Made by a program: the position numbers and the translations under genes
The notes under the pieces: generated by a model
What the model was told of the DNA's origin: nothing
What the model saw: the letters and a program-made list of their open reading frames with translations, nothing else
Database searches by the model: none
Assembly: GCA_934501435.1 (NCBI GenBank)
Contig: CAKSTW010000007.1
Coordinates: 1,347 to 65,346 of the forward strand
Length of the DNA: 64,000 nt
From: an uncultured Eubacteriales bacterium
GTDB taxonomy: Bacteria; Bacillota; Clostridia; Oscillospirales; UBA644
Reading direction: 5' to 3'
Shown: in pieces, positions 10,097 to 63,395 of the stretch
How the letters are laid out: each line of letters starts with the position of its first letter
Numbering within the stretch: position 1 is the stretch's first letter

Positions 10097-10669
10097 TCAA
10101 AGTTCCTTGACCAACTGTTCAAATTCCGCTTTCGTGACCGTCATATTGAGCGCTTCGACAATTTTCGTGTTCGAAAGGCGTAAAGGAAGCGCAAGTCTTT
10201 TTAACAGCGTTCTTTTCTTTTCGACGCAGTTGTCGTTTCCGTAAATACCCGCCGCGTAAAGGTCCGTTTTGGTTATTTTCTCTCCCGAAAATTCGGACGG
10301 GGTCGCCCCTGCCTTTTCGAGAGCCGCGCGAATCGCGTCTTTCGGAACGCCCTCAACGCCGAGAAGCCCTTCCGCCGACGGTTTTTCCTTGCGGCTTTCT
10401 TTCCCCTCAATTGTCGGGATATAAGCGTTCTTTATATATTTTTTGTCGACGAAACTTTCGATATACTGCCGTATCTTAAAGCCCGCGCCGTCGCTGTCGG
10501 TGAGTATTATTATTCCGCGTTTTTTTGCGACTTCCCTTATCCAGAGCCGCAGTTCGGCGTCCCTAAAGATACGGAACCCCCGCGTCGTTATGACGGTCGC
10601 GTCGCAGACCTGCTTTATTGCGGTCTCGTCGTATTTGCCTTCGGCGATTATGACTTCGTTTATCCTCAT
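10097..10669 (-). CDS. rnmV: ribonuclease M5 / Toprim-domain protein
   Basis: I trimmed the start to MRINEVIIAEGKYD (ATG at 10669), which overlaps the holA stop. Has a Toprim-like IILTDSDGAGFKIR motif. Confidence 0.7.
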   Translation of the reverse strand: MRINEVIIAEGKYDETAIKQVCDATVITTRGFRIFRDAELRLWIREVAKKRGIIILTDSDGAGFKIRQYIESFVDKKYIKNAYIPTIEGKESRKEKPSAEGLLGVEGVPKDAIRAALEKAGATPSEFSGEKITKTDLYAAGIYGNDNCVEKKRTLLKRLALPLRLSNTKIVEALNMTVTKAEFEQLVKEL

Positions 10670-11673
10670 AGTTTCGAAACACATTCCGCGATCAGGCGGT
10701 AGACCGAATCCTCCGTTGAAACGGCGGTGCTCTTTGAGGAGATGTCGGCGGCGATACAACATTCGAGCAGCGCGTTTATCTGCCCGTCCGACAGGCGGCG
10801 CGCGATCTCGCAGTTTTTCTGCGTCGGATATTCCTTTGTCCCCATTATTTTGCCTATTTCGCTCTGCGTTTTTCGCTCTTCGAGCAATATTTTTGTTTTT
10901 GCTATCGTCGCGACCGCGTTTTCTATCGAATAAAGCAGAATAAGGGGATAGGTGTTCATCGCAAGCATCTTTTTGCAGATATCATAGGCGGCGTCGCAGT
11001 TTTTAGAGAATATCGCGTTCGTCATCTCATAACTTTTCGCGTCGTAACTTTTCGTCGAAAGCAGGTCGATATCCGCCTGCGAAACGGTTTTTTCATCTTC
11101 TTTATAAAAGATGAGTTTGTCCATTTCGTTTTTCAGAAGAAACATATCGGCGGGCACGTTTTTTACGAAATATTCGGCTGTCTGCCGCGAAACCGTAAAC
11201 CCGTGTTTCGAAAAGTATCCCGATACCCACCGAATAAGTTCGCTTTCCGCGGGAGTGTCGCAGACGACCGAAAGCCCGTTTGCTTTGACGAATTTTTCGA
11301 AAGCCTTATATTCCGCCGTGCGCTTGTCGTATTTTTCGACGTCGCAGTATATAACAAGGCACATTTCGTCCGATAAAAGACCCTCTTCTTCCGAAAGAAG
11401 AGAAACGACCGGCGACGAAACCGGCAGATCGGTTATTATATAGAGTTTTTTTGCCGAAACGAGCGGCAGGGAGCGGACGTTTTCGGTAAACTCTTCCGTC
11501 GAAAGGTCTTTGCCGTCCGCCGTCATCAGGTCGAAATCGTTCCCTTCGGGAAGCACCGCCTTTTTCAGAGAAGAAAGCCAATGCTCCTTAAGGTACGGTT
11601 CGTTTCCCGTTATCAGATATATTTTGCGGAAACTTTTTTCCGCAATGTCGTTTTTTAAGAATTCAAGACTCAT
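10666..11673 (-). CDS. holA: DNA polymerase III delta subunit
   Basis: 335 aa with a HolA-like N-terminus (IYLITGNEPYLKE). Conserved neighbourhood. Confidence 0.8.
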   Translation of the reverse strand: MSLEFLKNDIAEKSFRKIYLITGNEPYLKEHWLSSLKKAVLPEGNDFDLMTADGKDLSTEEFTENVRSLPLVSAKKLYIITDLPVSSPVVSLLSEEEGLLSDEMCLVIYCDVEKYDKRTAEYKAFEKFVKANGLSVVCDTPAESELIRWVSGYFSKHGFTVSRQTAEYFVKNVPADMFLLKNEMDKLIFYKEDEKTVSQADIDLLSTKSYDAKSYEMTNAIFSKNCDAAYDICKKMLAMNTYPLILLYSIENAVATIAKTKILLEERKTQSEIGKIMGTKEYPTQKNCEIARRLSDGQINALLECCIAADISSKSTAVSTEDSVYRLIAECVSKL

Positions 11674-11675
11674 TT

Positions 11676-14030
11676 TTATTTAAGCGTGACTATCGTTACG
11701 CCCGCTTCTCCTTCTCCGAACGTGCCGAGGCGGTACTCTTCGACAAGCGGATTTCTCTTTAACATCGTGTGTACGCCCTGCCGCAAAACTCCCGTGCCTT
11801 TTCCGTGGATAATACTTACAGTTTTAAGCCCCGAAAGGTAGCAGTTGTGTATAAAATCGTCAACGATAGTTTCTGCGTCGAGCAGATTTTCGCCCCGGAT
11901 ATCGAGTTCGCGGGAGACCTGCCTCGAACCTCTTTCGGTCTTCACCGACGGCGTCGGAACAGGCTTGAAATCGGTCTTTACTTTCGGCTTTTCGCAAAGT
12001 TCAAGGTCGGAAAGTTTTACTTTCGTGCGGATTATTCCCGCCTGCAATTCGACATAACCTTTTTTGTCGGCGGGGGAAAGGACGGTCGCTTCTTTTCCGA
12101 GAGAAACGATTTTTACCGTGTCTCCCTTTGCGAGAGGTCTGTCTATCGGTTTTTTCGCCTGCGGCCGCAGTTTTTCTTCTATTTTTGATTTTTCTTCGTA
12201 ATCTTTTCTTGCCTTGTCGAGTTTTTCTTTGAAATTCTTTTTGTCTTTTTCCCGTCTTACTTCTTCGAGTTCGTCGAGGATAAATTCGCTTTCGGTCACG
12301 GTCTTTTCCCAAAGCGCCCGCGCTTTTTTCAGAGCGTTTTCCGCCTCTTTTTCGGCGTTTTTCTTCGACTCTTCGGCGTCAATACGCAGTTTTTCGCAGT
12401 ATTCCTCCGCCTCTTTTAACTTGTTTGCCGCCGTCTTTTCGTTTTCTTCTATTTCTCTGCGGCTTATCTCAAGGTCCGCAAGCACCGTTTCGACCCTTAC
12501 CGTGTCGGAGGATATCTGCTCTTTCGCGTCGGCAATTATCTCTTCGGGCATACCGAGCCTTGAAGCGATGGCAAAGGCGTTCGATTTGCCGGGAAGCCCC
12601 GTAACGAGTTTATAGGTCGGCTTTAATGTCGCAAGGTCGAATTCGCAGGAGGCGTTTTCGACGCCGTCGGTGTGAATGGCAAAAAGTTTGAGTTCGGGAT
12701 AGTGGGTCGTCGCCGCTATTTTCGCCCCTCTGCCCATCAGCGTTTTTATTATCGAAACCGCGAGCGCCGCGCCCTCCGCAGGGTCTGTTCCGCCGCCGAG
12801 TTCGTCGAGAAGAATGAGAGAATTGCCGTCCGCGCCGTCGATTATTTTTATGATGTTCGACATGTGCGAAGAAAAAGTCGAAAGGGACTGTTCTATCGAC
12901 TGTTCGTCGCCGATATCCGCATAAATTTTATCGAAAAACGCAACTGTGCTGCCCTCTTTTGCCGGAATGAAAAGCCCGCATTTCGCCATGAGACAGAGAA
13001 GACCCGCCGTTTTTAACGTTACGGTTTTGCCGCCGGTATTCGGTCCCGTTATCATCAGGACCGAATATTTTTCGCCGAGGGAAATATCGGTCGGGACAAC
13101 GGTGTTTTTGTCTATAAGCGGGTGTCTTGCCCTTGAAAGGCGGATAATTCCGTCTTCGTTTATTTCGGGAAGCACCGCCGACATTTTGTCCGCGAGTTTT
13201 GCCTTTGCGAAAAGCAGGTCGAAATAGACCGCAAGGAAATAACTTTGTCTTATTCCGTCGGCAAAGCCCGAAACCTCCTCCGAAAGGGCAGCCAGAATCG
13301 CCTCTATCTCGTGTTTTTCCTCCGACGCCAAAAGAGAGAGGTCGTTGTTTGCCGAAACGACGCTCACCGGCTCAATAAAGACGGTCGAGCCGCTTGCCGA
13401 GGTGTCGTGGACAAGCCCCGGAATTTCGTTTTTGTTTTCCGCCTTGACGGGGATAACGAATCGGTCGTTTCTTATCGTTACAATGTTGTCCTGCAGATAT
13501 TTCTGATAATTCGGCGATTTGATATAACTTTCAAGCGACGAGCGTATTTTGTTCTTCGCCTGCGCCGTTTTTCTTCTTATTTCGTGAAGCCGCGACGACG
13601 CCCTGTCCGAAACTTCTTCTTCCGACGGGAAATCGGTGAAAATTTTATCTTCGAGATATCTGTTCGACGAAAATTTCGGCAGATAGCCTTTTAACAGACC
13701 TTCTTCGGCATGATTCTGCAGATATTCTTCGAGAAGCCTTGAGGTGCGGAGAAGCCGCGCTGTTTTCAGAAATTCGCCTATTGATAAAACCGCGCCTCTT
13801 TCCGCTTTTTTGACGCTTTCCGAAACGTCGGTTATCCCCGAAAAAGAGGGGGCGGAGTATTTTTTATATAAAACGAACGCTTCGTCGGTTTCGCGAAGCG
13901 CCTGCCTGCATTTTTCCGCCGAATCAAAGGGCTTTGTTTCCTCCGCCGCTTTTTTCGCGGAAGTTGACACGCAGCAGTCGGAAAGCAGCAGCAATATCTT
14001 ATCAAGTTCGAGAGTTTTTATTTCATTCAT
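11676..14030 (-). CDS. mutS2: endonuclease MutS2 (MutS ATPase domain plus C-terminal Smr domain)
   Basis: Walker A motif ITGPNTGGKT, a coiled-coil region, and a C-terminal Smr domain (LDIRGENLLDAE...IIHGKGTGVLR). Start trimmed to MNEIKTLELDKIL at 14030. Confidence 0.9.
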   Translation of the reverse strand: MNEIKTLELDKILLLLSDCCVSTSAKKAAEETKPFDSAEKCRQALRETDEAFVLYKKYSAPSFSGITDVSESVKKAERGAVLSIGEFLKTARLLRTSRLLEEYLQNHAEEGLLKGYLPKFSSNRYLEDKIFTDFPSEEEVSDRASSRLHEIRRKTAQAKNKIRSSLESYIKSPNYQKYLQDNIVTIRNDRFVIPVKAENKNEIPGLVHDTSASGSTVFIEPVSVVSANNDLSLLASEEKHEIEAILAALSEEVSGFADGIRQSYFLAVYFDLLFAKAKLADKMSAVLPEINEDGIIRLSRARHPLIDKNTVVPTDISLGEKYSVLMITGPNTGGKTVTLKTAGLLCLMAKCGLFIPAKEGSTVAFFDKIYADIGDEQSIEQSLSTFSSHMSNIIKIIDGADGNSLILLDELGGGTDPAEGAALAVSIIKTLMGRGAKIAATTHYPELKLFAIHTDGVENASCEFDLATLKPTYKLVTGLPGKSNAFAIASRLGMPEEIIADAKEQISSDTVRVETVLADLEISRREIEENEKTAANKLKEAEEYCEKLRIDAEESKKNAEKEAENALKKARALWEKTVTESEFILDELEEVRREKDKKNFKEKLDKARKDYEEKSKIEEKLRPQAKKPIDRPLAKGDTVKIVSLGKEATVLSPADKKGYVELQAGIIRTKVKLSDLELCEKPKVKTDFKPVPTPSVKTERGSRQVSRELDIRGENLLDAETIVDDFIHNCYLSGLKTVSIIHGKGTGVLRQGVHTMLKRNPLVEEYRLGTFGEGEAGVTIVTLK

Positions 14031-51452: not shown

Positions 51453-51827
51453 TCAGTCTTTTTTTGTGTACCCCCAACAATTCCCGTCAAGACACAACTT
51501 GTCGCGATGATTCTCAAGCCCACCGTCTTCATAATGTATGCAATCAATACATTTCTTTTCCATTACTTTTTTCAGCCTGTCGTCATATTCCCTGCGGGAA
51601 AGCACCGTAACCTCAATTTCATTTATTTTGCATATGCCCGAAATATTGAGATATGTTTCTTTTGTATCTTCTTCGATAAAATAAGGGAAAACACAATTTT
51701 CCGTATCAAGCATTTTCAGCCCGATAAAAGAGTTGAAATGTCTGTTCAGATATGAAATAAAACTTTCAATATCCGAAAACCCGTCGGGATAGTAATAATA
51801 ATCGTTGTCAATTTCAAGTATTTTCAT
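51453..51827 (-). CDS. hypothetical small acidic protein with a Cys-rich C-terminus, immediately downstream of the CRISPR array
   Basis: 124 aa with GGAGG 5 nt upstream of the ATG. C-terminus CIDCIHYEDGGLENHRDKLCLDGNC. A/T-rich relative to core genes. No family recognised. Confidence 0.6.
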   Translation of the reverse strand: MKILEIDNDYYYYPDGFSDIESFISYLNRHFNSFIGLKMLDTENCVFPYFIEEDTKETYLNISGICKINEIEVTVLSRREYDDRLKKVMEKKCIDCIHYEDGGLENHRDKLCLDGNCWGYTKKD

Positions 51828-51874: not shown

Positions 51875-52499
51875 GATCGATTACCCTATGAAGTTACTCT
51901 ACGCTCAAATTCCAATCACTTTTTGGATTTCTTTTTCGGTTTGATTACCCTATGGAATTACACGACACTCAAACACGGTGTCTCGAAAGCATTTCGGCAG
52001 AAGGTTTGATTACCCTATGGAATTACACGACACTCAAACTAATCAAGGTCTTCCGAAGTGGATAATTGAGTTTGATTACCCTATGGAATTACACGACACT
52101 CAAACTAGTTGATTATGAAATAAAAATATGTTATAGTTTGATTACCCTATGGAATTACACGACACTCAAACAAAGACGCAAGCAAGGCAAAAGCAAGCAA
52201 GTTTGATTACCCTATGGAATTACACGACACTCAAACGAACAACACAGGGAATTATTCCGCAGTATGTTTGATTACCCTATGGAATTACACGACACTCAAA
52301 CCCGCAAAGGTCAATCGCTTTCATTCTCTTCGTTTGATTACCCTATGGAATTACACGACACTCAAACCTTTTGGATATAAAGAAAAAGATATGGATAGTT
52401 TGATTACCCTATGGAATTACACGACACTCAAACCCAGAAACGCTGTAACCCGGTTTTACACCCGTTTGATTACCCTATGGAATTACACGACACTCAAAC
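51875..52499 (-). CRISPR. CRISPR array: 9 identical 36-bp repeats plus 1 degenerate terminal repeat, 9 spacers
   Basis: The repeat on the plus strand is GTTTGATTACCCTATGGAATTACACGACACTCAAAC. Copies start at 51939, 52004, 52070, 52136, 52201, 52266, 52332, 52398 and 52464. The degenerate copy at 51875-51910 has 8 mismatches. The spacers are unique, 28-30 bp. Polarity was set by the leader side, the degenerate distal repeat and tracrRNA complementarity. Confidence 0.97.
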
Positions 52500-52618
52500 C
52501 TCAAATCCGAGTATTCCCGCTGCGAACGGGTCGTTATTCCAAAGGGCATATCGTGCTTAAAAGCCTGAAAAACAAGGCTTTCTGCCTATATTTTAACAGA
52601 AAAACGTATCAATGTCAA
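52500..52618 (-). promoter_or_regulatory. CRISPR leader between csn2 and the first repeat
   Basis: 119-bp A/T-rich non-coding segment. Read on the minus strand it ends ...CGGATTTGAG directly abutting repeat 1. Confidence 0.7.
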
Positions 52619-53284
52619 CTAAAATTCGCAAAGATCGGAATCAACGGTCAGTCTTTTGACCCCGTTTATACGGGTTCTTGCGGTATTTTCAAGAAAAAGA
52701 AGCCGAAGCTGCCGAGTTTCGGCTTCTTTTACGATTTCCGTTATTTCTCCGTCGGTAAAAAAGCAACGCATATTTACCGTGATAAAAAGCCTGCTTTTAT
52801 CAAGTTCCGTAAGAGCCGTCATATAATTGACGACGGTTTCCGCGGAATTTTTTCCGTCGTCGGCAATAAATACCGACGCGGCTTTTATCACGGATGAAAT
52901 ATTGAGTTTTCTGCACTCCGTCCTGAAAGGAAAAGAAAAGGAAAGCTCATACATATAATTTTCAATTTCCGCAATAAGGGCAGAGGTCTGAAGCAAATGC
53001 TCTTCGTCGACCGCCGTTTTTTCCATAAAAGACGAAATTTTTGAAAGCATTGTCTTGGTATTTATATCAAACGGGGCAAAATTATCCAGAATATCGACGT
53101 TTTTACTTATCGTAACAGGCGTATTGTCGACTGAAAGAACGGTTTTTCCGTCTCCGCCCTCATGCTGAAACCTCATATCTTCGAGAAACGAACGAAAAAG
53201 GTTTTGGTTTTCGAGGACGAGTTCAAAAGCCGTCCCTTCCGGAATTTCGATAACTTCCGAAAAATACGGAGATGCAATTTTCAT
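52619..53284 (-). CDS. csn2: type II-A CRISPR-associated protein Csn2
   Basis: 221 aa in the last position of the cas operon. Has Csn2-like landmarks (FELVLENQ...; LRLLFLEN near the C-terminus). 4-nt overlap with cas2. Confidence 0.85.
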   Translation of the reverse strand: MKIASPYFSEVIEIPEGTAFELVLENQNLFRSFLEDMRFQHEGGDGKTVLSVDNTPVTISKNVDILDNFAPFDINTKTMLSKISSFMEKTAVDEEHLLQTSALIAEIENYMYELSFSFPFRTECRKLNISSVIKAASVFIADDGKNSAETVVNYMTALTELDKSRLFITVNMRCFFTDGEITEIVKEAETRQLRLLFLENTARTRINGVKRLTVDSDLCEF

Positions 53285-53601
53285 AGAAATACCAGCCTTT
53301 CGTCGCTGTCAACGATATCGCTCTGATTTTTGCCGGTGATATATGTTATCCCGGCAAATTGTCTTTCCGTAACGGTAAGAAGCTGAACGATTCCGCTGCC
53401 CGGCTTTTCTCGGCGTATAAGGTCGGCGACCGATTTTTCGACGGAAGCGTTAAGAACCATTCTGCAATAAACCGATTCCTGCATCATGATAAAGCCGTTT
53501 TTGACGAGCATTCGGTGAAATCTTCGGTATTCGCGTCTGTTCTGTTCCGTTTCGGTCGGCAGGTCGAAAAAAACAAGAATTCTCATAAATCTGTAACTCA
53601 T
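53281..53601 (-). CDS. cas2: CRISPR-associated endoribonuclease Cas2
   Basis: 106 aa. N-terminus MRILVFFDLPTET...YRRFHRMLVKNGFIMMQESVY is typical of type II Cas2. Confidence 0.9.
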   Translation of the reverse strand: MSYRFMRILVFFDLPTETEQNRREYRRFHRMLVKNGFIMMQESVYCRMVLNASVEKSVADLIRREKPGSGIVQLLTVTERQFAGITYITGKNQSDIVDSDERLVFL

Positions 53602-54467
53602 ATTTCCGCAAATTTTATCAGCGAAACGTCTCCGTCGCCGATAGCGTCAAAAACGCTTTTTGTATAGATTTTTACGGCGTTGAGCAAAGTCTGCCCGCAG
53701 CCGCCTATATTTAGCGGGGCGCTTAAAAGCGATATGATCTCCGCTTTTTCGGGTTTTCCGAATTCGGAAACTTCCATTGAAACGACAAGTCTGTCGACGG
53801 CAACACGAAAAGGTTCCATCAGATCGCAGGAAAGGTTGTAAGGATTGAACATGTTGTCGTGGAAAATTCCGAGATGGGGGAGAAAACCCGCAAGTGTGAC
53901 CTCTCTGTTAAATGCGGAAAGCAAAATTCCGTATCCGTAGTTGAGGGCGGCGTTTATCGGGTTTTCCTGCCCGCGGGAAAAGTCCATTCCGAAAAGAGCG
54001 TTGAAATAGACTTTCGCCGCGTGTCCCTCTCTGTTCGTTTCGTCTCCGAAGGTGATTTCCGACACATAGTCGTTTAACATTCCGCTTTCTTTTGAAAGTC
54101 CGCGTTCTTTAAGAAATTTCGCCTGATTTCTGATTTTTTCCGCGACGATCTCCGTCCATACGGAAGACTTTATATCGTCGCTCCACGCCGCCTGTAATTT
54201 GATTTTCCGCGAACAGTCGTGAGAGCCGTTATACGGCTGCAGTTCGGCATAAGGGCTCCTCTTTTCGTCGCAGAAAATTATTCTGACTTTATGCCTTGTC
54301 AGTTCGGCGAGAAGGCAGCCCGTCATCGAGACGGCGGGATTTTCAATCATAAGAACCGAAATTTCGTCGAGAAAAACTCTTTTCGTATCTTCCCCGCGAA
54401 CAACCATAAACCCCATAGAAAGGTCGAGTTTGCAGCGGCTGGAGATCACGACCGTACGCCAACTCAC
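53598..54467 (-). CDS. cas1: CRISPR-associated endonuclease Cas1 (type II)
   Basis: 289 aa. Has WRTVVISSRCKLDL...CDEKRSP...NAALNYGYGIL motifs. 4-nt overlaps on both sides. Confidence 0.92.
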   Translation of the reverse strand: MSWRTVVISSRCKLDLSMGFMVVRGEDTKRVFLDEISVLMIENPAVSMTGCLLAELTRHKVRIIFCDEKRSPYAELQPYNGSHDCSRKIKLQAAWSDDIKSSVWTEIVAEKIRNQAKFLKERGLSKESGMLNDYVSEITFGDETNREGHAAKVYFNALFGMDFSRGQENPINAALNYGYGILLSAFNREVTLAGFLPHLGIFHDNMFNPYNLSCDLMEPFRVAVDRLVVSMEVSEFGKPEKAEIISLLSAPLNIGGCGQTLLNAVKIYTKSVFDAIGDGDVSLIKFAEI

Positions 54468-57400
54468 AACAGTTCCTTCTTAAGGTTTTTCGAACGCTTT
54501 TCGAAAAGCCCGGATGCGGAGCGGTCAACGATGCGGACATCGTTATATTTCCAGTTGCTTAAATTACCGCTAAGCAGAATGATTCCCTCTCCTTTACTTC
54601 CTCCGACAACAGACATATCACAACTGCCTGCTCGGTTTGTTTTCAGATAAAGTATCATACTTTCAAGGCATTTAATTTGTTCATCGACAGTCTTATACTC
54701 AAAGACGTCCGCTTTTCCTGTAACAACGCAGGGTTTTGCTCCGGGAAGCCTATCAAAAGTTTTGTTTTTCATCTTTGAAACCAAACTTTCGTAAAGACGG
54801 AGATTTTCTTCGTGCGATATGCCGTCGTATCTTTCGTCTATGGTATAATCTCTGTTTTTTTCTCTCTTTTTTGCTATATTCTCTATCTTTTTTATGTACC
54901 GTACTTCTTCGGGCGTGTAATACGGAGTCATAAGCGAACGGAAAATAACAGAACTCCCGTTTTTACCTGCAATACATACATCAAATCCGTCAAGAGAAAA
55001 AACAGTGTTTATTTTAATTATTCTTCCGTTCAACAAAGGTTCAATATCAAAAGCGTCTTCCGGCAAAGCCTTCTTTATACAGTCGAGAGCGCAGTCTCCT
55101 CCTTTTTTGAATTTTTCCGCGTCGAGGAGATTTATTCCGATTATCGCTATGTCGGATTTCTTTCCCTTTTTATATTTTGCAAGTACGAAGAAAGACGCCG
55201 TCGGTTTATTGTAACCGCCGTACTTTTCCGCGGGAAGATCCTTTTTTCTGTTGATAAGATTTTCCGTTTTCTCTCCGGACTGTTTTGGCAGAATATCGAA
55301 AAACCCACCTTTCTTTTCCGTCTGATATTTTGTCAGGCGGATAAAGTTTGTAGCCATTGTTTTGTCGATTGCCGCAAGATGCTTTTCGGACTGCCAATAT
55401 CCGCCGCGCGGGAACCCGAACAACGTTTTAATGTTGAGGGAATATTTGTCGGTCGAAACGTCAAACTTCTTCCGTGCTATCGGTTTGGTGAAACGCTCGT
55501 CGTAAACGTTTCCGACAACAATATTGAGGTAAGCGTCGTGAGCGTGGTGAGCGTCGTTTGCGGTACGGCTCTTGACAAGTTCGAGTTTTTTCTTTTCATC
55601 GTCCGTCAGAGAAAGATTTGAGACCCTATTCTTGATTTCACCGTATCCGTGTCTGAAATCGCTTACAAGCCCTGCTTTTGAATAAACGATCCCGGTTTCG
55701 GGATATTTTTCTTTCAGCAGTTCCGCGACCGCCTTTGTCGATTGCCTTGTTTCGACAAGCTGCCTGTTTATAAAGCCGAGTTTCTCTTCTTCCGTAAACG
55801 CGGTGTTCCTTGTGAGCCGGCTGAATTTCGCTTTGCTTATTGCTCCGCCTGAAAGAAGGCTCGTCCAGAAGCCCGTCATTCTCTCCCGCCAATTCGCGCG
55901 TATCGGGTATTCGTCTTTTTTTGACTTGTTTTCTTCTTCGCAGACAAGAACTTTATTGTCAAGGCTGTCGTCTTTGACAAGAGACTGCGGGCGGATATGG
56001 TCGACGTCGTATTTTCCCGATTTTATATCGTTTATCTCTATTCTTTTTCCGCAGTACATACATTTCCCGTGCTGCATAAAGTAAAGATACAGTTTTTCGC
56101 TTTGCAGACGTTTGTCTTTATCCGCGCCGAGTCCGTCAAGTTCTTTTTCGAGTTCCGAACGGTCTTCTTTTGCGGCTTTGATGATTTCTTTTATCCTTTC
56201 GCTGCGGGAAGCGGTTCTCTTTCCCTTCCTGTCGGGTTCTTCGCCCCTTGCCGTTTCGATAAAGATTTTGTCGGGCGGACACCCCTTTGCCTTAACGATA
56301 TCGGAAATAATATCGAGAGAACGGAATATCGGGCGCTTTACGGCGTTCGATACCCCCATTTCGTCAAGCCTGTCGTTGATTTTGTGCGGGTGTTCCGAAT
56401 AATATTCGGCGACGGCATCGTCGATCTTCTCCGTGAAATCGTATCTGTCCGACAGAATCTGCATAAGGTTGTCGTTCGTATCCCACAGAAAGTGCATAAC
56501 GGTCCCGACTTCTCCGGTTTCTTTGCACATTCCGACCGTTCCGTTAAGGAACTTTGCGGAAAGTCTTCCGAAATCGGAATATCTGAGTTTTGAAACATAT
56601 TTGATATCCTCGTCGGAAAGCGGGAAATTATCCTTCAGATATCTCTCAAAACGCCCCTTGTCCTCGGTGCAGGTCCTGTAAAGTATTATTTTTTCAACGT
56701 CGTCGTCGGATAAGACTTTGTCGGACAGCAGTCTTTTGAAATCAATATATGAGTCAAAAGACGCTTTTATCTTTTCGTCGATTCCCGATATCACGTCGTC
56801 TTTTGCCAGCAGTCCGTTTGCCCGCATACAGTCTTCGAGTTTTTTGCGGGTCACTTTGCGGCAGGACTTAAAGAGTTCTTCGAAAACTTTTTGTTTTGCT
56901 TCGACGGTTATCGGCTTCTCGTTTATTTTTATATTGTTTATTTCGTTAAGCACCGTAAATTTGCCGTAAAGGAGCGATTTTTTCGGCAAAACGTCTTCTC
57001 CCGGCAGATAAGTGCATTTGTTTGTCATTCTTCTTATGAATTCTCTCTCGCAGGCGTCGCCGTCGACGATATCTTCGAAATTCCACGGCAGGATTTTTTC
57101 GTCTGACTTCTTTTTGATCCAGGCGAAATTACTTTTTTCATTTAACGGACCGACGTAATAGGGGATTCTGAAAGAAAATATCGACAGCAGCTTTTGAGAT
57201 ACGGTCAAGCCGTCGCCGTCTTTTTCCAGAAGAAACGGGAATTCTTCCGCCGCGTTTTCAAGAATTTTTTTGAGTTCCGCATAATAAAGCTGTTGGGGAA
57301 TAAGGCGGTTGTCTCCGTCGACCTGTTTCGGCATATATTCGCCGGAATCTATGCGTTTTAATATCTCTTCAATCGCGGGATCTTCGGTGTTTATTTTCTT

Positions 57401-58501
57401 GAGAAGTTTCTTTACTTCGTCATAGAAATCGGATTTTTTAGCACTCTTTTCTCCCTTGTGCTTTTTATGATATTTTGCGACGTACGAAGAGTATTTGGAG
57501 GTGATGTCTTTTCTGAAAAAATCCTTGTAATCATCTTTGGGAAGATATTTTTTTACAAGATATTTCAGATTTTTAAGGTCTTCTTTATGCGTATTGTATT
57601 CCCCGACTTTAACCTCGGATATCCACTTTTTGTCGCCGAGCATGCGTTTTAACGACGCTCCGTTATACATATTTGCCGCAAGTTGCAGAAGTTCGCCTTT
57701 GTCTCCGAGTTCTGGTAGCGCCGCTTCGACCGTTTCTTCGTTTTCAAGGCATATCTTTTCGGTATATTCGCCGCCGAAAACGTCGTTTGCCGAAATCTTT
57801 CCGCCGGATATCAGCGTTATGAAATTCTTGCGGACTATCGGATAATCTTCTTCGTCCGCAGGAAATTTCCCGCCGAAAAGAAGTTTTTTCAGCTCTTCCT
57901 TTTTCTTGGTTATACCGAGAGGCTTTGCAAGAACTTCTTTGAAACTTTCAATGTCGCAGTCCCACGGTTGTTCAAAGCCGTTATCGGAGAAATAAGCCGT
58001 AAAGGCTCCGTAAAATTCCTCAATGTCGGTCAGTTTTTCAACATCGTCGCCGTCCGTCGAATTGAGAAAATGCCCCCTGTGCGCAACAAGCCAGGCGACA
58101 GCGGAATAAAGTTCTCTTATATCGTGTTTTCTGTCGTTGTTTATAAACGACATTATAAGGTGATGTATGGTCGGGTCGGAGATATTGTACGCCGAAACGG
58201 TTTTGTCTTCGGGGTATAAAGCGCTTTCTTTGAGACGGGTAAAGAAATCGGGATCGACTTTCGCCGTTTCTGCGGCAAAGAGTTCTCTTACAAGTTGAAT
58301 TCTTTGCTTTTTTCTTTCATTTCTCCGTCTCGAAGTTCTTGCCGTTCGACGATCCGCGCATTGTTTTCCCTCGTCAAAGAGGGTAACTCCCCACATCGGT
58401 TTCCTTTTGTATTCACAAAGATTGTAGTCGGTATCGGTAACTGCATACCCCACCGACTCTGTTCCTATATCGACTCCGATGTAATAAGAATTTTTTTTCA
58501 T
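54464..58501 (-). CDS. cas9: type II-A CRISPR-associated endonuclease Cas9
   Basis: 1345 aa. RuvC-I is YYIGVDIGTESVGYAV, followed by an Arg-rich bridge helix (RRTARTSRRRNERKKQR). HNH is YDVDHIRPQSLVKDDSLDNKVLV and RuvC-III is NDAHHAHDAYLNIVVG. Confidence 0.97.
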   Translation of the reverse strand: MKKNSYYIGVDIGTESVGYAVTDTDYNLCEYKRKPMWGVTLFDEGKQCADRRTARTSRRRNERKKQRIQLVRELFAAETAKVDPDFFTRLKESALYPEDKTVSAYNISDPTIHHLIMSFINNDRKHDIRELYSAVAWLVAHRGHFLNSTDGDDVEKLTDIEEFYGAFTAYFSDNGFEQPWDCDIESFKEVLAKPLGITKKKEELKKLLFGGKFPADEEDYPIVRKNFITLISGGKISANDVFGGEYTEKICLENEETVEAALPELGDKGELLQLAANMYNGASLKRMLGDKKWISEVKVGEYNTHKEDLKNLKYLVKKYLPKDDYKDFFRKDITSKYSSYVAKYHKKHKGEKSAKKSDFYDEVKKLLKKINTEDPAIEEILKRIDSGEYMPKQVDGDNRLIPQQLYYAELKKILENAAEEFPFLLEKDGDGLTVSQKLLSIFSFRIPYYVGPLNEKSNFAWIKKKSDEKILPWNFEDIVDGDACEREFIRRMTNKCTYLPGEDVLPKKSLLYGKFTVLNEINNIKINEKPITVEAKQKVFEELFKSCRKVTRKKLEDCMRANGLLAKDDVISGIDEKIKASFDSYIDFKRLLSDKVLSDDDVEKIILYRTCTEDKGRFERYLKDNFPLSDEDIKYVSKLRYSDFGRLSAKFLNGTVGMCKETGEVGTVMHFLWDTNDNLMQILSDRYDFTEKIDDAVAEYYSEHPHKINDRLDEMGVSNAVKRPIFRSLDIISDIVKAKGCPPDKIFIETARGEEPDRKGKRTASRSERIKEIIKAAKEDRSELEKELDGLGADKDKRLQSEKLYLYFMQHGKCMYCGKRIEINDIKSGKYDVDHIRPQSLVKDDSLDNKVLVCEEENKSKKDEYPIRANWRERMTGFWTSLLSGGAISKAKFSRLTRNTAFTEEEKLGFINRQLVETRQSTKAVAELLKEKYPETGIVYSKAGLVSDFRHGYGEIKNRVSNLSLTDDEKKKLELVKSRTANDAHHAHDAYLNIVVGNVYDERFTKPIARKKFDVSTDKYSLNIKTLFGFPRGGYWQSEKHLAAIDKTMATNFIRLTKYQTEKKGGFFDILPKQSGEKTENLINRKKDLPAEKYGGYNKPTASFFVLAKYKKGKKSDIAIIGINLLDAEKFKKGGDCALDCIKKALPEDAFDIEPLLNGRIIKINTVFSLDGFDVCIAGKNGSSVIFRSLMTPYYTPEEVRYIKKIENIAKKREKNRDYTIDERYDGISHEENLRLYESLVSKMKNKTFDRLPGAKPCVVTGKADVFEYKTVDEQIKCLESMILYLKTNRAGSCDMSVVGGSKGEGIILLSGNLSNWKYNDVRIVDRSASGLFEKRSKNLKKELL

Positions 58502-58509
58502 GACTCATA

Positions 58510-58538
58510 TTGACAACCTCCCTTTTTTATGTTATTAT
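58510..58538 (+). promoter_or_regulatory. tracrRNA promoter
   Basis: TTGACA (58510-58515), 17 nt, then TATTAT (58533-58538). It is divergent from and abuts the cas9 start codon. Confidence 0.7.
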
Positions 58539-58544
58539 ACAGGT

Positions 58545-58653
58545 GTAAGTTACCCTATGGACTTACACGCGAGTTCAAATAAGGATTTTCCGAAATCGTC
58601 GGCTTTGCCGACAGCGCAGCGGCGCCACGCTTTCCTTTGGGAAAGCGTTTTTT
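58545..58653 (+). ncRNA. tracrRNA: tracrRNA
   Basis: The anti-repeat at about 58549-58580 (AGTTACCCTATGGACTTACACGCGAGTTCAAAT) is collinear with the plus-strand repeat, so it is complementary to minus-strand crRNA. It is followed by AATAAGG, hairpins GTCGGC/GCCGAC and GCGC/GCGC, and terminator ACGCTTTCC-tttg-GGAAAGCGT plus TTTTTT (58627-58653). The ends are approximate. Confidence 0.85.
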
Positions 58654-58665
58654 CTTTATGACGGA

Positions 58666-58694
58666 AGTATAACATATTTATAACAGAATTGCAA
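58666..58694 (-). promoter_or_regulatory. candidate distal cas9 operon promoter
   Basis: The minus strand reads TTGCAA-17 nt-TATACT, just downstream of the terminator of the preceding minus-strand gene. Transcripts from here would run antisense across the whole tracrRNA gene. Confidence 0.45.
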
Positions 58695-58705
58695 TACATT
58701 CTTCA

Positions 58706-58735
58706 CAAAAAAGACCATTCCGCGAGGAATGGTCT
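58706..58735 (-). terminator. intrinsic terminator after the M48/YgjP-like gene
   Basis: 10-bp stem AGACCATTCC/GGAATGGTCT with a GCGA loop, followed by a T-run on the minus strand. Confidence 0.7.
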
Positions 58736-59439
58736 TATGTTATGGGATATTTTGAAAGTTTCTTTCGCAGGGGTTTCCATTCGGGGACAAATTTTGCGAC
58801 TTCGTCGTAGAACGCCGTCGAATGGTTCGGAATTTTCAGGTGAGAAAACTCGTGGGCGACGACGTAGTAAACGCAGTCGTCGGGAACAAACGCCAAAGCG
58901 GTCGAAAAGGTGATTATCCGTTTTTTCGGTTGGCAGGAGCCCCACCGCGAACGCATTTTCCGAAACTTTATTTCGGGGAACTTTTCGCCCGGAATTCTTG
59001 ATTTTTCAAAGATTTCTTCGCATATCGGCAAGATTTTTTGCGTGCAGTATTCCCTGAAAAACCGTTCGAGAATTTTTCTTTTTGCCTCTTCGTTTTCGGG
59101 GTCTTTTGCGAAAACGACAATTTCGTTTTCCGAAAGGGCGACCGTGTCGTTCCCTTTTTTCAGGCGGACGGTAAGTCTTTTTCCCGAAAGCAGAACGGAG
59201 TTTCCGTCTTCGATTTTTTCGGGAACGGCTCTTTCTCTTTTCTCAAAGCCGTCGAGCGTTTTCAGAATAAAATCCGATTTTGAAAGAATAAACCGCTCGA
59301 TTTCCGCTTCGGGAACGCCGCGGCGGACCGAAACATAAATCCCTTTATCGGGACTTATCCTCAGGTTCAGATTCTTCACCCGTTTACGCTCAAGCGTATA
59401 TTCCAAGCGCCTGCCGCCGAGATACAGAGTCTTCGTCAT
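58735..59439 (-). CDS. YgjP-like (DUF45/M48 family) metal-dependent hydrolase
   Basis: 234 aa. Has an HEFSHL (HExxH) motif near the C-terminus and the N-terminal pattern YTLERKRVKNLNLRI typical of DUF45. Confidence 0.8.
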   Translation of the reverse strand: MTKTLYLGGRRLEYTLERKRVKNLNLRISPDKGIYVSVRRGVPEAEIERFILSKSDFILKTLDGFEKRERAVPEKIEDGNSVLLSGKRLTVRLKKGNDTVALSENEIVVFAKDPENEEAKRKILERFFREYCTQKILPICEEIFEKSRIPGEKFPEIKFRKMRSRWGSCQPKKRIITFSTALAFVPDDCVYYVVAHEFSHLKIPNHSTAFYDEVAKFVPEWKPLRKKLSKYPIT

Positions 59440-59440
59440 G

Positions 59441-59833
59441 TCAGAATTTCACCGTTTCTTCGGGTTTCGCAAAGGACGAAAAAACTGCGGTCGCGTTTTT
59501 GAAATACCAGACCTGCGTATTGCCGTCGTCGGCGGAATAGAGGCTTTGAAGTTCGGGGTACGCTTCAAGCATCGAAACTCTCGCTTCTCTTCTGTCGTCT
59601 TCGGCGAGTTCGCCCGAAACCCGGAGCCAGTCGCCGCCCGACATCGCGCATATCTCGACGTTCGGGTTTGCCGCAAGCTGCTTTGCGACGGCTTTCTTTT
59701 TCCCCGTCTGGATATAAAGCCGTCCCTCGAAAATATGAGCGGTGCCGAAAGGTCTTACTTTCGGTTTGTTTCCGTCGACGGTCGCAAGATAATATGTTCC
59801 CGCGTCTTTTAAGAATTTACATACTCTTTCCAT
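59441..59833 (-). CDS. pyridoxamine 5'-phosphate oxidase family (FMN-binding split barrel) protein
   Basis: 130 aa. YYLATVDGNKPKVRPFG...LYIQTGKKKAVAKQLAANPNVEICAM is typical of the family. Confidence 0.75.
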   Translation of the reverse strand: MERVCKFLKDAGTYYLATVDGNKPKVRPFGTAHIFEGRLYIQTGKKKAVAKQLAANPNVEICAMSGGDWLRVSGELAEDDRREARVSMLEAYPELQSLYSADDGNTQVWYFKNATAVFSSFAKPEETVKF

Positions 59834-59843
59834 AATTTATACC

Positions 59844-60380
59844 TCACTTAATGCTTTTCCCGAGTTCGTATGCCTTTTGAAGTCCCGCGTTTCCCTTTAT
59901 ATCGCCCGGGGCGTTTACTCCGCCGACAAAGACCGTTCCCGCAAGACGCGCGCGCTCAAAACAGTCAATCCAGCCGCAGATACCCTCTTCGGCGCGCTTC
60001 GGAACATATTCCCCGTCTTCCGCCGCCGTCGAAAGGACGTAAACGTCTTTGAAACGGTAATCGGAACCGTAAAGCGGGTTTGCGCGGTCGAGCACGGTCT
60101 TCAGCTGACCGCTCATTTCATAATAATATATGGGCGTTGCGAAAACGAGGACTTCCGCATCGTGAATTTTTTCGTTGATTTCGGCGCAGTCGTCCTTTAT
60201 TACGCATCTGCCCGTTTTCCGGCAGGAAAGACAGCCTATGCAGAAATTTATTTTCTTGCCGCCGAGAGTTATTTTTTCGGCTTCGTTTCCGCTTTCCTTT
60301 GCTCCGCGGATAAATTCGTCGGCGAGCGTTTCGGAATTGCTGTTTCTTCTTAAACTTGAACTTATAACCGTGATCCTCAT
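59844..60380 (-). CDS. flavodoxin-like NAD(P)H-dependent FMN reductase / iron-sulfur flavoprotein
   Basis: Start trimmed to MRITVISSSLRRNSNSE after AGGAG. Has a CIGCLSC...GRC cysteine cluster. Confidence 0.75.
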   Translation of the reverse strand: MRITVISSSLRRNSNSETLADEFIRGAKESGNEAEKITLGGKKINFCIGCLSCRKTGRCVIKDDCAEINEKIHDAEVLVFATPIYYYEMSGQLKTVLDRANPLYGSDYRFKDVYVLSTAAEDGEYVPKRAEEGICGWIDCFERARLAGTVFVGGVNAPGDIKGNAGLQKAYELGKSIK

Positions 60381-60437
60381 AAAAAATCTCCTTTCATACG
60401 CCCTAATTATATCACGCTTTTTTCGGCTTTGCAACTC

Positions 60438-60466
60438 TTGAAAAACATTTTCAGCCGTGATATAAT
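60438..60466 (+). promoter_or_regulatory. sigma-A type promoter of the methyltransferase gene
   Basis: TTGAAA-17 nt-TGaTATAAT. Confidence 0.5.
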
Positions 60467-60488
60467 CTTAAGCATGGAAGGTGATAAT

Positions 60489-61253
60489 ATGTCGGACTGG
60501 AATTTGGCTCAATATCTGAAATTTGAAAAGGAAAGAACTCAGCCCGCGGCGGATCTGCTGTCGCGTGTTTCCGATTTTTCGCCCGAAAAGATTCTTGACG
60601 CGGGCTGCGGTCCCGGAAACAGCACCGTTCTGCTTGCAAAAAAGTTCGGGACGGAAAAGGTTATCGGCGTTGACGCGTCGGACGATATGCTTAAAAAGGC
60701 GAGGGAAAAGCACCCCGATATCCGTTTCGAAAAAACGTTTTTGCCCGACGGCATTTCAGAATTCGGGAAATTCGACCTTATCTTTTCAAACGCCTGTATC
60801 CATTGGATCCCCGACCACAAAACGCTTATTCCGTCGCTCTTTTCTCATCTTTCGGAGAACGGCAGGCTTGCGGTTCAGATTCCGTATAAAAAGAAATCCG
60901 TTTTTTACGGACTGCTTTTTTCACTGCTTGACTCAAAATGGAAAAGACTAAAGGAAGTGCGGCTGTTTAACGAACTTTCGCCGGAGGAATATTACGATAT
61001 TCTTTCGTCGCTTTCACAGGATTTCTCGATCTGGGAAACGGAATATTACCATACGGTAAATTCTTTCGACGATGTTATCGGATGGTATGAGGGGAGCGGT
61101 CTGCGTCCGTATTACGACGTTCTTTCTCCGACCGAAAAAGAAGAGTTTGTCTCCGACTTAAAGAAACTCATTTCGGAAAATTTCAGAATACAGCAGAACG
61201 GCAGGATCATCTTGAAAATGCCGCGACTGTTTTTTACCGTTACAAAAAACTGA
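60489..61253 (+). CDS. tam: SAM-dependent methyltransferase, trans-aconitate 2-methyltransferase (Tam)-like
   Basis: Start trimmed to MSDWNLAQYLKFEKERTQPAADLLSRV, a Tam-type N-terminus. SAM motif ILDAGCGPGNST. Confidence 0.7.
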   Translation: MSDWNLAQYLKFEKERTQPAADLLSRVSDFSPEKILDAGCGPGNSTVLLAKKFGTEKVIGVDASDDMLKKAREKHPDIRFEKTFLPDGISEFGKFDLIFSNACIHWIPDHKTLIPSLFSHLSENGRLAVQIPYKKKSVFYGLLFSLLDSKWKRLKEVRLFNELSPEEYYDILSSLSQDFSIWETEYYHTVNSFDDVIGWYEGSGLRPYYDVLSPTEKEEFVSDLKKLISENFRIQQNGRIILKMPRLFFTVTKN

Positions 61254-61276
61254 AAAAACCCCCGAATCGGGGGATT

Positions 61277-61627
61277 TTAATATTCTGTTTTTATCCATGC
61301 CATAAGAAGATTTACTATCTTTTCCTGCTCTGTTTCGGAAAGAGGACGTCCTTTCGGGACTTTATACCACTTTTCAAGACAGCCGCGGCAGCAGCAGGCG
61401 CAGGCGTGCTGTGCGATAAACACGGGGTGTCCCCGCATCGGCGTTTGTCTGCCGTCGTTTTTCGGAATTGCGGGGGCGAGCCTTTCTTTTATAAACTTTT
61501 CGGCGTGCTTCTTTATTTCGTCAAGCCCCTTTTCGGCAATATAGGCTTTGTCTTTTGCCGAAAGCCGAAATTTTGCACGGAACGGCGACTTTTTCAGCTT
61601 TTCGAGGGCGGCGTCTATCGTCTGCAT
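61277..61627 (-). CDS. DUF4186 family protein
   Basis: 116 aa with HPVFIAQHACACCCRGCLEKWY, the hallmark as I recall it. Confidence 0.7.
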   Translation of the reverse strand: MQTIDAALEKLKKSPFRAKFRLSAKDKAYIAEKGLDEIKKHAEKFIKERLAPAIPKNDGRQTPMRGHPVFIAQHACACCCRGCLEKWYKVPKGRPLSETEQEKIVNLLMAWIKTEY

Positions 61628-62955
61628 TGCATATACCCGTATTTCTTTCTTTTTGCAAAGAGGAAGACCGCGGTTGCGGCGACGGCGGCGGCTTCGGCGG
61701 CGACAAGAGAAAACCAGATACCGTCAACGCCCCACAGGAGCGGGAAAATTATAACTGCGGAGACCTGAAAAACGAGCGTTCTCAAAAAGGAAATGAGGGC
61801 GGAAGTCAGACCGTCGTTTAATGCCGTAAAAAACGACGAGCCGTAAATTGCAAACCCCGAAAACAGGAAAGAAAAGGAAAAAATTCCGAAAGCGTGCGTC
61901 GTGATCTCAAGGAGTTCGGGGTCGTATCCGACAAATATCGCGGACATCGGTCTCCCGAAAAATATCCCCGCGGCAAACATTGAGATCGCGCATATAAGGG
62001 TGATGACAAGGCTTTTTTTAAGGATGTTCTTCAGTTCGCCGGTATTTTTTGCGCCGAAGTTGAACCCGACGATGGGCGCGCTCCCGACGGAATATCCGAT
62101 AAAGAGCGATTGGAAAATCATTCCGACATACATCAGAACGCCGTAGGCGGCTATCCCGTTTTCACCTGCGTAATGCATCAGTCTCGCATTGTAAAGCATG
62201 CTGACAAGCGACATGGAAACGTTGCTCATAAATTCGGAAGAGCCGTTCGCGCAGGTCTTTCCTATTGCCCTTATGTCGAACCTGCATTTTGAAAGACGGA
62301 GAACGCTGCTGTTTTTTTTCGCAAAATATATAACGGGAATGATCCCGCCGACAAACTGGCTTAACGCCGTTGCGACCGCGGCGCCGACAAGACCCCACTC
62401 AAAAACCGCGACAAACAGGGCGTCAAGCGCCATATTCGTACAGCCCGAAGCGACCGTTACGGCAAGTCCGAGTGCCGGTTTTTCAGCAGTCGCAAAAAGG
62501 CACTGAAATTCATACTGCAGGATATAAAAAGGCAGCGCGGCAAGAATTATTCTGCCGTAAATCACGCTGTCTTCAAGTATCTGTCCCTCCGCTCCGAGCA
62601 GAACGGCTATGGGACGCAGAAAAATTATGCCGAGAACGGCTATTATAACGCCGAGCGCCGCAGCGACGAAAACGACAAGCGAAAAAATTTCATTCGCTTT
62701 CTTTTCGTTTCCTTCGCCTCTGGTTTTGGAAATAAGAGCGCCTCCGCCTGTTCCGAACATAAAGCCTACGCAGCCTAACATCAAAAGAACCGGTATTATG
62801 AAATTCACTGCGGCAAAAGCCGTTTTCCCGACGAAATTCGAAACGAAAAAGCCGTCGACAATCCCGTATATCGAAGTGAAGACCAGCATTATTATCGAGG
62901 GCAGGGTAAAGCGCAGCAGCCGTCCGTATGTGAAATGGCTTGCAAGTCCCGTCAC
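61615..62955 (-). CDS. MATE-family efflux transporter
   Basis: 446 aa with 12 predicted TM helices. N-terminus LLRFTLPSIIMLVFTSIYGIVDGFFVSNFVG. Confidence 0.9.
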   Translation of the reverse strand: MTGLASHFTYGRLLRFTLPSIIMLVFTSIYGIVDGFFVSNFVGKTAFAAVNFIIPVLLMLGCVGFMFGTGGGALISKTRGEGNEKKANEIFSLVVFVAAALGVIIAVLGIIFLRPIAVLLGAEGQILEDSVIYGRIILAALPFYILQYEFQCLFATAEKPALGLAVTVASGCTNMALDALFVAVFEWGLVGAAVATALSQFVGGIIPVIYFAKKNSSVLRLSKCRFDIRAIGKTCANGSSEFMSNVSMSLVSMLYNARLMHYAGENGIAAYGVLMYVGMIFQSLFIGYSVGSAPIVGFNFGAKNTGELKNILKKSLVITLICAISMFAAGIFFGRPMSAIFVGYDPELLEITTHAFGIFSFSFLFSGFAIYGSSFFTALNDGLTSALISFLRTLVFQVSAVIIFPLLWGVDGIWFSLVAAEAAAVAATAVFLFAKRKKYGYMQCRR

Positions 62956-63395
62956 TGTTTTTTCTCCTTTTTCATTCTCGAACGGAAATCCTCAAGATAT
63001 TTTTCGGTAAGTCTGAAATAGTTTTCTACGTCTTCCTCTTCCCATGAAGAGAAAATGTCGTTTTCCGCTTCGATAATTTTTTTTACCGTGGTTTCGGCAA
63101 GCGTTTTTCCTTTTCCGGTAAGTTTTATCCGTTTGGTTCTGCCTTCGCTCAATATCCGCAGAAATCCGCTTTTTTCAAGATTTCTTACGGCTGATCCCGC
63201 GGTCTGCTTGGTCATACCCGAATATTCCCGTATGTCTTTGATAAGACATTCCCCGTCGTTTTCGTAAAGAGTGTAAAGAATTACGGAAACGCTGTCCGAG
63301 AGCCCGTATTTGACCGAAGCCCCGTGATATGCGGCGTCTATTTCGTTAAGAAGATAATTGTATCTGCGAAGTTCGTTTGAAACTATATTTTTCAT
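62952..63395 (-). CDS. MarR-family transcriptional regulator
   Basis: Start trimmed to MKNIVSNELRRYN (GAGGTG lies 5 nt upstream and TATAAT further up). This removes the overlap with the tfoX-like gene. 4-nt overlap with the MATE gene. Confidence 0.75.
   Translation of the reverse strand: MKNIVSNELRRYNYLLNEIDAAYHGASVKYGLSDSVSVILYTLYENDGECLIKDIREYSGMTKQTAGSAVRNLEKSGFLRILSEGRTKRIKLTGKGKTLAETTVKKIIEAENDIFSSWEEEDVENYFRLTEKYLEDFRSRMKKEKKQ

Follow-up and report, generated by a model that had tools for sequence, protein, structure and literature searches.

A type II-A CRISPR-Cas9 locus of the 'GTTTGAG' guide class from an uncultured human-gut Clostridia lineage

A stretch of 64,000 nucleotides from an uncultured Eubacteriales bacterium (contig CAKSTW010000007.1 of assembly GCA_934501435.1, hereafter the window) contains a type II-A CRISPR-Cas9 locus. 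The question it raises is whether this locus departs from known systems in its guide RNAs, in its nuclease or in both. A first-pass annotation of the sequence had proposed a complete and apparently active system in which the pair formed by the repeat and the trans-activating CRISPR RNA (tracrRNA) is non-canonical, so that neither the guide architecture nor the protospacer-adjacent motif (PAM) could be derived by analogy. The analysis reported here gives different answers for the RNA and for the protein. The locus is very probably a canonical type II-A adaptive immune locus of an uncultured human-gut Clostridia/Eubacteriales lineage, with guides of the 'GTTTGAG' class used by the Cas9 proteins of Treponema denticola (TdCas9) and Faecalibaculum rodentium (FrCas9). 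In repeat, tracrRNA, leader and operon layout the locus follows the textbook pattern of this TdCas9/FrCas9-like branch; its novelty resides in the Cas9 protein which, judged by its sequence, is a new orthologue.

Gene set, Cas9 protein and array

The locus comprises cas9, cas1, cas2, csn2, a leader, a repeat-spacer array and a divergent tracrRNA gene. All four cas genes lie on the minus strand, in the order cas9 (54464-58501, 1345 amino acids [aa]), cas1 (53598-54467, 289 aa, with a GTG start overlapping the cas9 stop codon), cas2 (53281-53601, 106 aa) and csn2, the type II-A signature gene (52619-53284, 221 aa), and each junction is a 4-nt overlap of GTGA or ATGA, as annotated at first pass. 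The proteins of the locus were scored against curated NCBIfam cut-offs, which all four Cas proteins exceed by far: 865 bits for Cas9 (TIGR01865, cut-off 100), 294 bits for type II Cas1 (TIGR03639, cut-off 120, aligned from model position 1), 65.6 bits for Cas2 (TIGR01573, cut-off 24.5) and 152.8 bits for Csn2 (TIGR01866, cut-off 35, residues 2-220 of 221, with a match to PF09711 as well). The system is thus complete, in agreement with the initial reading. The GTG start of cas1 is kept throughout the species cluster; a relative whose Cas9 is 53% identical (locus L125) has ATG instead, and the N-terminus reads SWRTVVIS in both. The 106-aa form of cas2 with its 4-nt overlap is called likewise in L125. 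The start of cas2 is ambiguous, at M1 or at M6 (which would give 101 aa), a point overlooked at first pass.

Pfam domains of Cas9 cover the bridge helix, the REC lobe, HNH, RuvC and the PAM-interacting (PI) domain (PF16593, PF16592, PF13395, PF22702, PF16595). The catalytic motifs IGVDIGT (D11), IFIETARG (E749), DVDHIRPQS (H835) and HHAHDAYL (H986, D989) are intact, and none of these five residues varies when 12 homologues are aligned with the window Cas9, which bears out the retention of the RuvC-I, HNH and RuvC-III motifs noted earlier. H835 aligns with the position mutated (H877A) in catalytically dead FrCas9.

FrCas9 (PDB 9JWK/9JWN; PMC8931148, PMC12926199) is the nearest characterized enzyme found. 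Its system has the same gene order with a divergent tracrRNA upstream of cas9, and its structure 9JWK is the best solved-structure match to the window Cas9 (E = 7e-194); the alignment spans the whole protein and takes in the PI domain (1372 aa versus 1345 aa here). Counted from printed HMMER alignments, identity is 38.6% over residues 3 to ~905 (~39% from the N-terminus through HNH), 25.6% over residues 1011-1339 (~26% in the C-terminal/PI region) and ~35% overall. The alignments served as source because a search for the F. rodentium locus with the tracr sequence of FrCas9's sgRNA (single-guide RNA) gave no exact match. Streptococcus pyogenes Cas9 (SpCas9) shares the same domain architecture (E ~1e-139 over residues 5-1006), but its PI domain does not align with that of the window Cas9 beyond a stretch of ~100 residues. 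A Treponema homologue (L197) has a Cas9 ~36% identical to that of the window.

The identical Cas9 sequence occurs on 22 contigs, and the samples that could be identified are human-gut metagenomes, Hadza cohorts included. Its 90% cluster also holds a 95% variant in the metagenome-assembled genome (MAG) GCA_964311725.1. Outside this cluster, the best match among 5.8 billion database sequences is 53% identical, and the best in species-representative genomes 52%, the top matches all being uncultured gut Clostridia or Ruminococcus MAGs. These nearest relatives, gut Clostridia/Ruminococcus/Oscillospiraceae II-A loci with Cas9 identities of 49-53% (among them P0002/L125 and L127-L130), agree with the window locus in how the operon is built, in the ATTTGAG end of the leader and in the layout of the tracrRNA. 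A single-protein scan of GTDB for Cas9 gave no match, plausibly because the nearest species representative found (L056) lacks cas genes. The suggestion that a new Cas9 orthologue might be present therefore withstood a check for near-identity, with ~35% identity to FrCas9 and at most 53% to any sequence outside its own cluster.

The array (51875-52499, minus strand) consists of nine perfect 36-nt repeats, in minus-strand sense GTTTGAGTGTCGTGTAATTCCATAGGGTAATCAAAC, one degenerate repeat at its end (51875-51910, 8/36 mismatches) and nine unique spacers of 28-30 nt. It is read on the minus strand, leader side (52500) first and 51875 last, an orientation supported by a trailer repeat that is degenerate, a promoter in the leader, the ATTTGAG/GTTT junction and the spacer turnover at the leader end in sister strains. 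The leader (52500-52618, minus strand, 119 nt) starts directly after the csn2 stop with a sigma-70-like promoter (52618-52590, minus strand; TTGACA-17-TAAAAT, extended TG, 11/12 match) and ends with ATTTGAG (52506-52500), which abuts the GTTT of repeat 1 (...CGGATTTGAG/GTTTGAG). The leader length and the counts of repeats and spacers given by the first-pass annotation all held. Of the 30 locus rows examined, the window among them, 21 have ATTTGAG at the leader end. Such an ATTTGAG/GTTT junction defines Group 1 of Van Orden et al. 2017 (PMC5382924), whose leader-end motif S. thermophilus CRISPR1 requires for adaptation (PMC5382924).

Directly downstream of the array trailer lies a 124-aa open reading frame (ORF; 51453-51827, minus strand) that has no Pfam match and occupies the same place in most sister-strain loci. 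GC content gives no genomic-island signal.

The tracrRNA gene and the guide class

The tracrRNA gene (58545-58654, plus strand, ~110 nt with predicted ends) lies upstream of cas9 and diverges from it. It is preceded by a candidate promoter (58510-58538, plus strand; TTGACA-17-TATTAT, 11/12 match, TG) and contains a 32-nt anti-repeat (58549-58580, plus strand), which is the only anti-repeat of the window and the only repeat-like sequence there outside the array. After the anti-repeat come GAGUUCAAAU, a small hairpin resembling a nexus, two further hairpins and a terminator (58627-58654, plus strand) made of a 9-bp GC-rich hairpin (58627-58648) and T6. The predicted repeat:anti-repeat duplex has an energy of -35 kcal/mol versus -12.2 +/- 2.8 kcal/mol for shuffled anti-repeats.

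Homologous divergent tracrRNAs with the same order of parts are found upstream of cas9 in ~30 related loci. In an alignment of 28 of them, pairing holds in 95.1% of cells across the three helices of the 3' part, with compensatory changes in 9 of 11 pairs; when the partners are slid by 1-3 columns as a control, 22-47% of cells are paired. RNAalifold recovers the two tracrRNA hairpins independently, and in hairpin 2 the window has a compensatory G-C pair where most relatives have A-U. The differences between the window repeat and the common class, A8U and A11C, are matched in the anti-repeat; conversely, the repeats of the nearest Cas9 relatives differ from that of the window at positions 8 and 11 with a compensatory anti-repeat change and a bulge shorter by 1 nt. 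Over the 28 loci, cognate repeat:anti-repeat pairs have a mean energy of -34.9 kcal/mol versus -22.6 for non-cognate pairs. Together with the promoter and terminator, the duplex and the covariation support, at the level of sequence, the divergent tracrRNA gene that the initial reading had placed here.

The question of the guide class was addressed by scanning one genome per species with the pattern GTTTGAG.GT.GTGTAATT(N11)TCAAAC. The class is present in at least 119 stretches of species-representative genomes, and the matches listed include Oscillospiraceae, Ruminococcus, Faecalibacterium, Anaerovoracaceae, Veillonella and Treponema putidum. The window repeat fits the form GTTTGAG.GT.GTGTAA... 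with a TCAAAC 3' end. Among the matches listed, the commonest gut-Clostridia II-A repeat, GTTTGAGAGTAGTGTAATTTCATATGGTAGTCAAAC, is identical to it at 31 of 36 positions and some others at 32 of 36 (86-89%). The 36-nt repeat of T. denticola, GTTTGAGAGTTGTGTAATTTAAGATGGATCTCAAAC (PMC4607530), belongs to the same class and matches at 27 of 36 positions (75%); csn2 is also present in that system (~224 aa versus 221 aa here). Identity to the FrCas9 handle is 80%, and the first 11 nt of the FrCas9 sgRNA, GUUUGAGUGUC, as well as its tracr GAGUUCAAAU motif are identical to those of the window; the sequences diverge in the upper stem and in the hairpins at the 3' end. Searching the literature for the repeat strings brought up no characterized system closer than those of FrCas9 and T. 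denticola.

These data do not sustain the claim of a non-canonical pair. The guide architecture can be inferred by analogy, given a widespread repeat class, a handle and motif identical to those of FrCas9 and a tracrRNA 3' fold conserved across 28 loci. The statement that the repeat shares only its GTTT/AAAC ends with the S. pyogenes class was also too strong, since the two repeats are identical at 19 of 36 positions. Membership of the S. pyogenes-like class itself (GTTTTAGAGCTATGCTGTTTTG..., with an ACGAG or Group-2-type leader end) was considered and rejected on the basis of these 19/36 identities and of the ATTTGAG leader end; S. pyogenes leaders end in ACGAG, like the CTRCGAG of Group 2 (PMC5382924). 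The SpCas9 system nevertheless follows the same crRNA (CRISPR RNA):tracrRNA logic of lower stem, bulge, upper stem, nexus and hairpins.

The mechanism proposed for the locus is drawn by homology, and expression, processing, cleavage and the PAM are inferred parts of it. What the analysis shows is the set of genes with unbroken motifs, consensus sites for promoters and terminator, an RNA duplex, a covarying tracrRNA fold and spacer turnover between strains. The leader promoter would drive synthesis of a pre-crRNA on the minus strand, and the anti-repeat of the divergent ~110-nt tracrRNA would pair with each repeat. Host RNase III, together with Cas9, would then process the duplex into crRNAs carrying ~20-22 nt of spacer and roughly the first 20 nt of the repeat. 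In FrCas9, small-RNA sequencing has established a mature crRNA of 21-22 nt of spacer and 20 nt of repeat (PMC8931148), and the same form is a reasonable expectation for the window by analogy. Guided Cas9 would cut spacer-matching DNA flanked 3' by a PAM, using HNH (H835) and RuvC (D11, E749, H986, D989), while Cas1, Cas2 and Csn2 would act with Cas9 to insert new spacers at the ATTTGAG/GTTT leader-repeat junction.

The PAM and the search for protospacers

Recognition of the PAM is where analogy fails. In FrCas9, the NRTA PAM is contacted by N1137, Y1198, R1213, T1214, K1321 and Q1334 (PMC12926199). These positions align with K1099, N1165, K1180, N1181, A1291 and G1304 of the window Cas9, so that none of the six is identical and one change, R to K, is conservative. 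Since the contact residues are not conserved, the NNTA/NRTA PAM is not transferable, and the candidate reading of the window protein as an FrCas9 orthologue with this PAM was rejected, the ~26% identity of the PI region pointing the same way. The PAM-reading hairpin is hypervariable even among Cas9 relatives of ~50% identity. The PAM of TdCas9 is NAAAAC (PMC4197953), and there is no basis for assuming it at this locus.

Spacer searches, proposed at first pass as a route to the PAM, were run and yielded neither a credible protospacer nor a PAM. For the window array, the best E among INPHARED phages and PLSDB plasmids was 0.2, and 32 more spacers from sister strains gave no phage match and plasmid matches at chance level. 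Exact 19-20-mers from eight spacers had no match in IMG/VR, nor did a 20-mer of spacer S1 in JGI metagenomes; a 20-mer of spacer S3 had two matches in GTDB genomes that did not extend and were set aside as chance. All 41 spacers compared with the window and with all fetched loci matched arrays alone, which confirms the earlier observation that the window holds no protospacer. A 20-mer of spacer S7 led to JGI metagenome contig SDBV01039404.1, where 25 of 30 positions match, 22 of them contiguous (L213 2694-2723, reverse strand). The match falls at the beginning of an 81-aa ORF that neighbours a large serine recombinase/integrase (phrog_95, E = 2e-74), and has the 3' flank ATGCTTTGAT. It could represent a protospacer that has diverged and belongs to a mobile element, a weak lead given that about one 20-mer match is expected by chance.

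With none of the six contact residues kept and no protospacer found, the PAM is not inferable. On this point the first-pass annotation was right, the PAM being the only property for which analogy truly fails.

Thousands of comparable II-A loci exist in metagenomes, and current understanding is not challenged by this one. Its value is mainly that of a candidate nuclease, as one more Cas9 orthologue on the FrCas9/TdCas9-like branch whose divergent PAM-reading hairpin could widen the range of available PAMs. The FrCas9 template can serve directly for the design of a guide scaffold, for example N20-22 + GUUUGAGUGUCGUGUAAUUC-GAAA-GGACUUACACGCGAGUUCAAAUAAGGAUUUUCCGAAAUCGUCGGCUUUGCCGACAGCGCAGCGGCGCCACGCUUUCCUUUGGGAAAGCGUUUUUU, and a PAM screen could easily be set up.

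Strain-level dynamics and the cas9 start

Whether the locus is active was approached through related strains. The strains of the species cluster contribute eight arrays with 41 distinct spacers. All arrays whose trailer end was recovered have one ancestral spacer in common at that end (CGAAAAAGAAATCC..., substituted at one position in L207), whereas their leader ends differ. Locus L004, whose Cas9 is identical to that of the window, carries a different leader-proximal spacer and lacks two internal ones. Spacer turnover at the leader end is the usual signature of ongoing polarized acquisition and argues, from sequence comparison, for recent activity. The activity presumed at first pass is thus plausible, and the complete locus is probably functional.

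Several observations weigh against the preferred reading of a canonical immune locus. No credible protospacer emerged for any spacer searched among phages, plasmids, IMG/VR, JGI metagenomes, GTDB genomes and fetched loci. An Rfam scan returned nothing at gathering thresholds; the tracrRNA model aligned at the right place and strand and over its full length, with just 15.7 bits against a gathering score of 70, and was not counted as evidence. The third observation concerns the translation start of cas9 (58413-58522, minus strand), where the Shine-Dalgarno sequence (SD) GGGAGG (58522-58517) is followed by an A8 tract (58498-58491). The ATG at 58508, which is the SD-proximal ancestral start, is put out of frame by the A8 tract and opens a 31-codon upstream ORF (uORF) ending at 58413. 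The cas9 ORF itself starts behind it at 58501, 7 nt downstream of that ATG and 15 nt from the SD (MKKNSYYIG...). This arrangement, overlooked at first pass, means that the A8 allele may lower Cas9 levels through weaker translation.

The strongest alternative starts from these data and holds that the locus is structurally complete yet attenuated or silent in this strain, the change from A7 to A8 at ancestral codons 4-6 having shifted the frame of the well-positioned start. Ribosomes loaded at the SD would then mostly translate the out-of-frame uORF, and little Cas9 would be made. In line with this, six loci from sister strains (L001, L207, L208 and L210-L212) carry A7, and their cas9 begins at the upstream ATG, at a distance of 8 nt from GGGAGG (MSHEKNSYYIG...), while the window and all contigs with the identical Cas9 protein have A8 and are left with only the ATG 15 nt from the SD. 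Against it, the ORF remains open from this in-frame ATG, and the effect on the protein is confined to a variable N-terminal tail (MKKNSYY versus MSHEKNSYY), D11 onward being intact. The A8 lineage is also present on 22 contigs from several samples, and its arrays still vary at the leader end (L004 versus L002). Spacer acquisition in type II-A systems needs Cas9, and such turnover inside the A8 lineage argues against full inactivation. Attenuation is therefore regarded as unlikely, though it is the alternative that survives best.

A bolder proposal, somewhat less likely still, is that the A7/A8 homopolymer acts as a slipped-strand switch and that the Cas9 it controls reads an uncatalogued PAM. 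The A7 form would place cas9 behind a strong SD, the A8 form would send ribosomes into the uORF and leave cas9 with a poorly placed start, and lineages would toggle Cas9 dosage between the two. If true, such a switch would shift the balance of immunity versus autoimmunity or tolerance of mobile elements.

The cas operon has a single promoter-like site, located beyond the tracrRNA gene. This candidate promoter (58666-58694, minus strand; TTGCAA-17-TATACT, a consensus match only) sits just past the terminator of the upstream gene (58736-58711). Were it used, the 5' untranslated region of cas9 would be antisense to the whole tracrRNA, with face-to-face promoters, both consensus matches only, ~115 nt apart.

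Losses in related lineages raise the further possibility that the locus is a decaying remnant heading for loss. A sister species retains just a tracrRNA gene and a mini-array, the arrays of L001, L210 and L211 are down to one ancestral spacer, and cas1 of L212 is split. In the window, by contrast, the four genes are full length with intact motifs, the nine repeats are all perfect, and the promoters and terminator are near-consensus, which makes decay very improbable. As for an unprecedented repeat/tracrRNA pair from which no guide could be designed, the reading least able to survive, a repeat just 53% identical to that of S. pyogenes and the 15.7 bits of an Rfam model built mostly on streptococcal-type sequences speak for it, but it is already contradicted by the spread of the repeat class, the likeness to the T. 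denticola repeat, the conserved tracrRNA fold, the handle and motif shared with an FrCas9 sgRNA for which small-RNA sequencing, editing and cryo-EM (cryo-electron microscopy) data exist, and a tracr segment, AGUUCAAAUAAGGAUUUUCCGA, that matches its S. pyogenes counterpart, AGUUAAAAUAAGGCUAGUCCGU, at 17 of 22 positions. A canonical type II-A immune locus remains the preferred reading.

The locus also illustrates how CRISPR loci change from strain to strain in an uncultured Clostridia lineage of the human gut, found in Hadza and other cohorts. Among its relatives, spacers turn over at the leader end, arrays collapse, a sister species has lost the cas operon, and the start codon is frameshifted. 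The sister species, a GTDB representative MAG from the Hadza (L056 4500-4830; CAKSPP010000053.1), has 86% nucleotide identity to window positions 58549-63183. Its entire cas9-cas1-cas2-csn2 operon is deleted, with a junction that leads from immediately beyond the -10 box of the tracrRNA gene to the inside of a repeat, and an orphan tracrRNA gene is left beside a mini-array of 2-3 repeats identical to that of the window. The collapsed arrays (L001 12840-12939, L210 10003-10102 and L211 8248-8347) keep their single spacer flanked by one good repeat and by the degenerate repeat that ends the array, next to intact cas genes. In L212 (8050-8919), cas1 is split into ORFs of 68 and 160 aa, likely by a frameshift, and the array is the longest seen, with 15 spacers. 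Finally, L207 carries a 1169-nt AT-rich insert (10504-11672), with no Pfam domain or phage match and with ORFs of 212 and 94 aa, which lies between two intact array repeats like a giant spacer; judged by the same two ORFs, this 1.17-kb insert is also present in L208 (~10900-12041), where it stands just past the array.

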